A DNA stretch of 64,000 bases from Escherichia coli (GTDB taxonomy: Bacteria; Pseudomonadota; Gammaproteobacteria; Enterobacterales; Enterobacteriaceae). The notes under the pieces are model-generated. The model did no database searches. It saw nothing but the letters and a program-made list of their open reading frames with translations, and was not told the DNA's origin. Both the position numbers and the translations under genes were made by a program. Below, in pieces: positions 31,401-32,596 of this stretch (positions within the stretch are counted from its first letter, which is position 1; every line of letters begins with the position of its first letter). Location of the stretch: NCBI RefSeq assembly GCF_041886205.1, contig NZ_CP169029.1; one strand, given 5' to 3'.

Positions 31401-31901
31401 CGTTGTCTGTGTACGGGGAGTTCTGGCTTTCGGTGCCAGCATCTGCGCCACACCACCGAGCACCATACTGGCACCGAGAGAAAACAGGATGCCGGTCATA
31501 CCACCGGTCCCAATGGCTGCCCCCCATGCTGCAAGGGTGGCTCCGGCGGTAAAGAATGATCCGGCAATGGCGGCAGCCCCCAGGACAATCTGGAATACGC
31601 CACCTGACTTGGCCCCGGCGACTCTGGGAACAATATGAATCACAGCGCCATCAGGCAGAGTCTCATGTAACTGCGCCGTTAACCCGGACGTGCTGACGTC
31701 CCGCCCGGCAATCCGTACCTGATACCAGCCGTCGCTCAGTTTCTGACGAAACGCCGGGAGCTGTGTGGCCCGTGCCCGGATGGCTTCAGCCCCCGTTTTC
31801 ACACGAAGGTCGATGCGGCGACCAAATCGTTGTAAATCCCCGTAAAGGCAGATGCGCGCCATGCCCGGTGACGCCAGAGGGAGTGTGTGCGTCGCTGCCA
31901 T
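31320..31901 (-). pseudogene. I: tail assembly protein I, 3'-truncated by a deletion running into J
   Basis: matches lambda I from MAATHTLPLASPGMARICLYGD.. to ..KARTPR.QTTD, then a frameshifted tail read from J DNA. Confidence 0.75.
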
Positions 31902-32596
31902 TTGTCGGTGTACCTCTCTCGTTTGCTCAGTTGTTCAGGAATATGGTGCAGCAGCTCGCCGTCGCCGCAGTAAATTGCGGCGTGATTCGGCACTGATGAA
32001 CCAAAACAGCACAGCAGCACATCGCCCGGCTGTGCCGCTGACAACGGCACCTGATACAGCCCCGTCGCCTCCAGATTGCGTTTCACCCACGAAGCATGGC
32101 CGCCATTGTCACCAAGAAAATCCCCGCCCTGCGACATAGCGATGGAAAGAGCAGGTATTGATTCGTAGTACGCCAGCATTTCAGAAAGGATCGCATCCAG
32201 TTTCCTTATCGGAAAATAGGCCTGGTCATAGTTGCGATCCACCCGAAACTGGAACTCGTGATAATCATCATCGAGCTGAATGAAGTATTTACACCCGACC
32301 AGTTTTGCCAGGTCGAAACAGGCATTACGGGCGTAAAAAATTGAGCGGCGGTCACAGAAATTATCGGCTTCGTCAAAACGACTGGCGATATCGGCTTTGG
32401 AAAACACCAGCACCTGTTCACCAAATTCAGCCATGTACTGATGCCGTGTCTTATCTTCATCATCAACAACGATAAAAATTTTCCCGGTATAGCCAGCACG
32501 ACGCAACGTCCGGTAAGTCAGAACTTTGTCCGGTCGCCCGTGAGTCAGAATAAAGGCGCAAAAATCATCACGCATATTCCTCCTCCTCACCACCAT
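31799..32596 (-). CDS. chimeric ORF: unknown N-terminal domain fused to the C-terminal part of tail assembly protein K
   Basis: last ~95 aa (LEATGLYQVPLSAAQPGDVLLCCFGSS..) match the lambda K C-terminus; first ~170 aa do not resemble K. Confidence 0.6.
   Translation of the reverse strand: MVVRRRNMRDDFCAFILTHGRPDKVLTYRTLRRAGYTGKIFIVVDDEDKTRHQYMAEFGEQVLVFSKADIASRFDEADNFCDRRSIFYARNACFDLAKLVGCKYFIQLDDDYHEFQFRVDRNYDQAYFPIRKLDAILSEMLAYYESIPALSIAMSQGGDFLGDNGGHASWVKRNLEATGLYQVPLSAAQPGDVLLCCFGSSVPNHAAIYCGDGELLHHIPEQLSKRERYTDKWQRRTHSLWRHRAWRASAFTGIYNDLVAASTFV

Follow-up and report, generated by a model that had tools for sequence, protein, structure and literature searches.

An uninterrupted open reading frame of 265 aa on the minus strand of an Escherichia coli contig (31799..32596 in the window, the 64,000-nucleotide stretch of NZ_CP169029.1, assembly GCF_041886205.1, that was analysed) raises the question of whether a protein assembled from parts of two phage genes has acquired a role of its own or is the trace of a recombination event in a decaying prophage. 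The initial annotation, made from the letters alone, had described an unrecognised N-terminal domain of about 170 residues joined to the C-terminal part of the lambda tail assembly protein K and translationally coupled to an upstream ParB-like gene, and had left both explanations standing. The extent of this frame was confirmed in the ORF listing. Its first in-frame ATG, at 32596, lies seven codons upstream of a second ATG at 32575. The true product is most likely the 258 aa protein initiated at the latter, because all homologues of the N-terminal part begin with the same MRDDF sequence and PGAP selected ATG 32575 in the sister genome too. This start codon is preceded by GAGGAGGAGGAAT, a Shine-Dalgarno sequence, and overlaps the stop codon of the ParB-like gene (32570..32568) by 8 nt (ATGCGTGA), and the proposed coupling between the two genes thus holds for ATG 32575. 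The coordinates of the features discussed below are collected in Table 1.

Table 1. Features of the chimeric locus in the window.
Feature	Position	Strand	Evidence
Chimeric CDS, 258 aa + stop	31799..32575	(-)	ORF listing, shared MRDDF start, PGAP
TAGT-derived segment, codons 1-166 of the gene for a 310-aa TAGT/GREB1-related GT-A glycosyltransferase	32078..32575	(-)	DNA identity, PF20691, phrog_842
Junction, dinucleotide AA, hybrid codon AAT (Asn)	32076..32077	(-)	Three-way DNA alignment: intact TAGT gene, window, lambda
K-derived segment, lambda K residues 108-199 + stop	31799..32075	(-)	DNA identity to lambda, Pfam
Gene I remnant (lambda 14773-15282), truncated by a second deletion, with the lambda-like overlap onto the end of the K segment	31393..31901	(-)	
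Gene J remnant lacking about the N-terminal third, joined to I'	29176..31398	(-)	
ParB/Srx-like gene, full-length ynaK homologue, 263 aa	32568..33359	(-)	ORF listing, Pfam, PHROG
Terminator-like hairpin between trkG and ParB	33387..33410	(-)	10-bp stem, 7 G-C pairs, T-run; consensus match only
trkG, K+ transporter cargo gene upstream of ParB	33497..34954	(-)	

The K-like tail of the ORF proved real, but the N-terminal part, correctly set apart from K (its first ~173 residues are unrelated to that protein), could be placed after all. A profile search matched the chimera to the TET/JBP-associated glycosyltransferase family (TAGT, PF20691) with an E value of 1.5e-24 and 87.6 bits (gathering cut-off 27.5), over profile positions 4-151 of 205 only, and to phrog_842 with an E value of 2.7e-55 over positions 1-147 of 270; Pfam placed residues 15-175 of the 265-aa ORF in the family, and with both profile sets the matching stretch was given as residues 8-174. 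PHROG 842 is labelled 'beta-glucosyl-HMC-alpha-glucosyltransferase', and PGAP names the protein 'GREB1-related protein'. Among the members of the TAGT family are the glycosyltransferase domain of GREB1 and the T6-type enzyme believed to attach a second glucose to glucosyl-hmC (PMC13390438, PMC7968844). The assignment is equally clear in the DNA. The TAGT segment is 100% identical to positions 8126-8625 of locus L002, where it is part of an intact parent gene, and in a megablast search of complete E. coli genomes the first 625 nt of the query were 100% identical to many strains in which the gene runs on to 933 nt and 310 aa. This intact parent matches positions 4-205 of 205 in PF20691 and 1-269 of 270 in phrog_842.

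By comparison with this parent, the chimera lacks the 144 C-terminal residues of 310. When 42 family members were aligned, 67 positions proved invariant, 30 of which fall beyond residue 166 and are thus lost, and the catalytic domain is incomplete by both profile coverage and conserved residues. The invariant triplet D102-D103-D104, which contains the DxD motif, is kept. An AlphaFold model of the intact parent, built from the 42-sequence alignment (pTM 0.72, pLDDT mostly 85-98 over residues 1-150), displays a confident GT-A core and resembles SpsA, GpgS, LH3 and glycogenin, GT-A enzymes themselves, at a match probability of ~1.0; these values describe the parent and not the chimera. Projected on this model, the chimera keeps the Rossmann-like, nucleotide-sugar-binding half of the GT-A fold together with its DxD motif, and is deprived of the core strand 172-175, helix 188-198, strand 203-213 and the conserved C-terminal region.

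The C-terminal part was identified just as precisely. The final 92 residues (NLEATGLYQV...AASTFV) are 100% identical to residues 108-199 of lambda K, and the DNA of the window from 32077 to 31393 is 99.3% identical to lambda 14597-15282. Full-length lambda K contains in Pfam a Prok-JAB match (residues 10-56) and an NlpC/P60 domain (residues 63-176). The chimera still matches NlpC/P60 (PF00877) with 31.4 bits against a gathering cut-off of 23, over profile positions 41-105 of 105 only. Starting at K residue 108, it lacks the whole JAB/MPN domain, the first 40 positions of the NlpC/P60 profile and the catalytic Cys73, found in the motif GVTDCY of lambda K; the two His residues are still there. 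A phmmer search of PDB sequences with lambda K gave no match at E <= 0.01, and the weak NlpC/P60 matches obtained at E <= 10 were used solely to place the Cys and His motifs; in one of them, itself weak, the DC motif of K aligns on the DCSG of the solved NlpC/P60 enzyme 8idc_E. In the lambda reference, the region between L and the annotated start of K (L003 1128-1420, lambda 14127-14420) encodes MTQTESAILAHARRCAPAESCGFVVSTPEGERYFPCVNISGEPEA in a frame that differs from that of K.

Three-way alignment of the window with the intact TAGT gene and with lambda showed an abrupt switch from one parent to the other at 32076/32077. Down to 32076 the window is 100% identical to the TAGT gene, beyond this point the similarity is lost, and identity to lambda begins at 32077; the dinucleotide AA is the only sequence common to both parents at the breakpoint. 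The two breaks fall at nucleotide ~500 of the 933-nt TAGT gene and at codon 108 of K, and the protein reads ...GHASWVKR-N-LEATGLYQ... across the join. Both flanks of the junction therefore match intact parents and share a 2-nt overlap, as in a sharp deletion scar. In an intact Rac-like prophage the genes are arranged in the order S-R-Rz-trkG-ParB-TAGT-69 aa ORF-terS-terL-portal-coat...H-M-L-K-I-J, and ~16 kb of morphogenesis genes are missing from the window relative to it.

The parent gene is common and the junction is rare and restricted to one lineage. Among 5,426 complete E. coli genomes, the TAGT gene is partly present in 995 and at least 80% present in 869, and the junction occurs in a single one. 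The exact 258-aa chimera, seen in E. coli only, is carried by 50 contigs and the parent by at least 1,000. All retrieved copies share one junction and the same upstream block (99.93-100% identity), which indicates a single recent event; two of them, L006 and L007, match the window without a difference over 12.8 kb. Downstream of the chimera at least three different contexts were observed, some copies being organized as in the window and others carrying a different secondary deletion. In L005 and L008-L011, I is cut at codon ~62 (locus positions 6852-6861, equivalent to window 31716) and joined, with ~10 nt of overlap, to a point just past lom and upstream of an Stf gene, which removes J and lom. 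The right end of L008 is of the Rac type (pinR, ynaE, ynaM) instead of the bio region. Because different deletions follow the same junction, the join between TAGT and K came first, before the decay specific to each lineage. Neither the sequence downstream of the scar nor any partner for the K fragment is being conserved.

The element that houses the chimera is itself in ruins. Over 9.5 kb the window shares 99.98% identity with the complete genome of E. coli wlxctx60 (NZ_AP045833.1, assembly GCF_059718285.1), in which the prophage sits at att-lambda, between ybhC and ybhB-bioA. Read in order, it comprises int, xis, ea8.5, an O gene that is truncated and a P gene that is frameshifted, ren, emrE, a nin-type region and quuD; a porin gene, the lysis genes, trkG, ParB, the chimera, I', 'J, lom', stf' and tfa come next, and a gene for a diguanylate cyclase closes the series. 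Nothing is left of the immunity and recombination region, a further deletion has joined I to J, and of lom and stf there are only fragments. The prophage is therefore a heavily decayed cryptic element with several independent deletions.

Several further observations were made on this element and its surroundings. The second deletion joins lambda 15282 (in I) to ~16780 (in J) with a 6 nt overlap at window 31393-31398 (-), at the cost of the C-terminus of I and of roughly the first 425 codons of J. The ParB-like gene is intact in the window, as it is in L002 and ON470595; in wlxctx60 (L001 7342-8133) the annotation treats it as a truncated pseudogene with a separate hypothetical ORF after it, which marks the window as coming from a sister strain. 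An IS3-family insertion of ~1.3 kb (window 39900-41206 (+); HTH_21 and rve ORFs, ALIL frameshift pseudoknot 40233-40349) lies in the nin-type region and is missing from the otherwise 99.95% identical wlxctx60. A MASE4-GGDEF diguanylate cyclase gene (window 26348-27679 (+)), between the prophage tail-fibre assembly gene and ybhB, looks like cargo of the prophage arm at att-lambda. An Rfam scan of the whole window gave no match within 31000-34000; the matches elsewhere, without bearing on the chimera, were IS009 inside the tail-fibre assembly gene (27796-27994 (-)), a Moco riboswitch (15979-16123 (-)) and the ES036 sRNA (17388-17429 (+)). Promoter and terminator scans gave counts not above those of shuffled sequence, the hairpin after trkG being the sole item noted.

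The sharp breakpoint, the two truncated halves, the rare junction and the decaying host element all favor the recombination scar that the initial annotation had offered as one of its two options. We conclude that the chimera is very probably the scar of an in-frame deletion by illegitimate recombination, and that its product, if made, is most likely inactive. In the proposed sequence of events, a first break would have occurred at nucleotide ~500 of the 933-nt late gene for a TAGT/GREB1-related GT-A glycosyltransferase, whose place in Rac-type phages is given by the order Rz-trkG-ParB-TAGT-terS-terL-portal, and a second one in a lambda-type tail gene K, at its codon 108. The 3' end of the TAGT gene, the terminase, portal and head genes and most tail genes would have been lost in between, that is ~16 kb by analogy with the intact Rac-like prophage. 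The recombination would have been illegitimate and essentially independent of homology, within a defective lambdoid prophage at att-lambda. As the join happens to be in frame, the TAGT start codon, its Shine-Dalgarno sequence and the 8-nt overlap with ParB would now drive translation of a 258-aa hybrid down to the stop codon of K.

An inert product is expected because the glycosyltransferase half is devoid of the C-terminal half of its fold and of 30 of the 67 invariant residues, and the K half of its Cys and JAB domain; loss of activity would thus follow from the truncations. Expression would presumably require that transcription of the late operon reach the chimera, a point on which the terminator-like hairpin after trkG and the missing early regulatory region of the prophage both bear. 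The open frame, the good ribosome-binding site and the coupling to an intact ParB count against an inert scar in that the protein could be made, as does the persistence of the fusion through at least two different later deletions in different lineages.

A first alternative concerns the route and not the outcome. Instead of an internal deletion in one mosaic phage, illegitimate recombination could have joined two resident prophages, one of the Rac type and one of the lambda type. The DNA left of the junction is 99% identical to a Rac-like prophage, and the DNA to its right is 99.3% identical to lambda and only ~80% identical to the K and I genes of the Rac-like prophage; moreover, in some strains the chimera is followed by the Rac-type right end described above and not by the bio region. 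Lambdoid phages are mosaics, however, and a single parent combining a Rac-type head region with a lambda-type tail tip is plausible because SC516 has an identical trkG-ParB-TAGT block in a phage with lambda-type exo, bet and gam. No intact parent with both this TAGT allele and a lambda-type K was recovered. We regard a join between two prophages as the less probable of the routes, though one to be taken seriously, and the result is a scar either way.

The other option of the initial annotation, a domain-swapped protein, would mean that a nucleotide-sugar-binding module, truncated and attached to the C-terminus of K, has taken on a new role and is maintained by selection. The in-frame ORF with its Shine-Dalgarno sequence and ParB coupling, the presence of the exact protein on 50 contigs in at least three downstream contexts, and the conservation of the DxD motif and of the Rossmann half are all compatible with such a role. 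Each half is nevertheless cut inside its conserved catalytic core, with loss of the peptidase catalytic Cys, and a single near-identical upstream block with one 2-nt junction, confined to E. coli and to one rare decaying lineage, speaks for a single recent event. The same TAGT gene has given rise to many other random-looking fusions, and a random deletion joins two frames in register one time in three, so that an in-frame join is expected by chance in one third of deletions. As a unit, the chimera matches no defence-system model and no NCBIfam family. We therefore find no support for this option and hold it to be very unlikely.

A defence-system reading was considered separately and rejected, PADLOC and NCBIfam giving no significant match for the chimera or its parent; the one match of the ParB-like protein was to a methyltransferase model, and there to the ParB-like N-terminal part alone. 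Given the retained DxD motif and nucleotide-binding half, the hybrid may still bind or hydrolyze a sugar nucleotide. That it is translated from the ParB-coupled start and exerts a residual or new activity, either UDP-sugar binding or hydrolysis or interference with the intact TAGT or K of superinfecting lambdoid phages, appears highly improbable; were it so, selection and not neutrality would account for the survival of the fusion through later deletions.

An assembly or sequencing artefact at the junction, to which the repetition of K/I/J sequences among prophages (median 2 places per genome) and the draft contigs that stop exactly at the junction (P0004, P0006 and P0012) might point, has a practically negligible probability, as the identical junction is present in the complete chromosome NZ_AP045833.1, in L006 and L007 along 12.8 kb of perfect identity, and in many independent NCBI assemblies on contigs that reach 668 kb in the loci shown and 4.86 Mb for the longest carrier.

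In other strains, the TAGT gene is fused in frame, independently, to fragments of J, Tfa, Stf, I, tail tube, MuF-like and terminase genes, and two such fusions were verified on long NCBI contigs. The breakpoints were surveyed against the parent (L002 8126-9058) with L012 5001-6368, L014 5001-6137 and proteins P0050-P0072. Of the 25 versions of the gene found truncated or fused, 15 have their breakpoint in residues 230-235 (nt ~690-705, around the palindrome TTCCGGAA); in another 4 it falls at residues 249-254 (nt ~747-762). On the right-hand side, the joins are spread over terS, portal, MuF-like, tail tube, I, J, stf and tfa genes and involve 2-6 nt of microhomology. Fusions at residues 230-235 and 249-254 keep the whole Pfam TAGT domain; the junction of the window, at nucleotide ~500, is outside this cluster. 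From the sequences compared, the intact TAGT gene appears to be a recurrent left end of prophage deletions and the cluster looks like a site-specific breakage hot spot. No Chi site that could cause these recurrent breaks was found in L002 7001-11000; a packaging-initiation (pac) cut by a headful-type terminase is a speculative cause.

The biology of the chimera is that of ordinary prophage decay. The protein is already known, as RefSeq WP_238092849.1 (UPI0006934ACA), as are both parent families, and deletion scars are commonplace in cryptic prophages. The value of the present identification lies first in annotation: an ORF that databases take as intact, under the names "GREB1-related protein" or "NlpC/P60 family protein", consists of two fused gene fragments and deserves to be flagged as a remnant. 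It also establishes that the gene found between ParB and terminase in Rac-type prophages is a full-length TAGT-family GT-A glycosyltransferase, present to at least 80% of its length in about one sixth of complete E. coli genomes, with no annotated TET/JBP partner nearby. The breakpoint cluster in this gene, outside the window, is more interesting than the chimera itself.

Compared with the TAGT family, the chimera shares the DDD motif and the Rossmann-like half and retains only profile positions 4-151 of 205. In the annotations of SC516 and ON470595, the neighbours of the intact gene are trkG, ParB, the 69-aa ORF and terS, and no TET/JBP dioxygenase or hmC/hmU pathway is annotated near it; the prophage gene thus differs from the family in adjoining ParB and terminase instead of such a pathway. 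Compared with lambda, the K segment is identical in protein as far as it goes, and gene I comes after it with its native overlap, but the segment has lost the JAB domain, the beginning of NlpC/P60 and the nucleophile Cys73, and the partner tail genes of K are gone or broken.

A parallel is found in the Rac prophage of E. coli K-12, to whose ydaY and tmpR the initial annotation had pointed. It was right about the locus and wrong about the gene: YdaY is dissimilar to the TAGT domain, and K-12 has a different deletion. A relationship of the N-terminal domain to ydaY was rejected, no alignment to K-12 YdaY being obtained at E <= 100, and Pfam assigned YdaY to no family. The window and K-12 share trkG and the first 254 nt of ynaK and then diverge. 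In K-12 Rac, the position equivalent to ON470595 35740, inside ParB, is joined to 47301, inside a tail-region gene annotated YdaY. The K-12 scar is flanked by ynaK and ydaY (L004 4378-4981), ~11.5 kb having been lost, including the TAGT gene. Thus, although K-12 Rac, unlike the window, contains no TAGT sequence at all, its ynaK-ydaY-ynaA(tmpR) segment displays, in the same late-operon locus downstream of trkG, a large morphogenesis deletion and fused or truncated ORFs.
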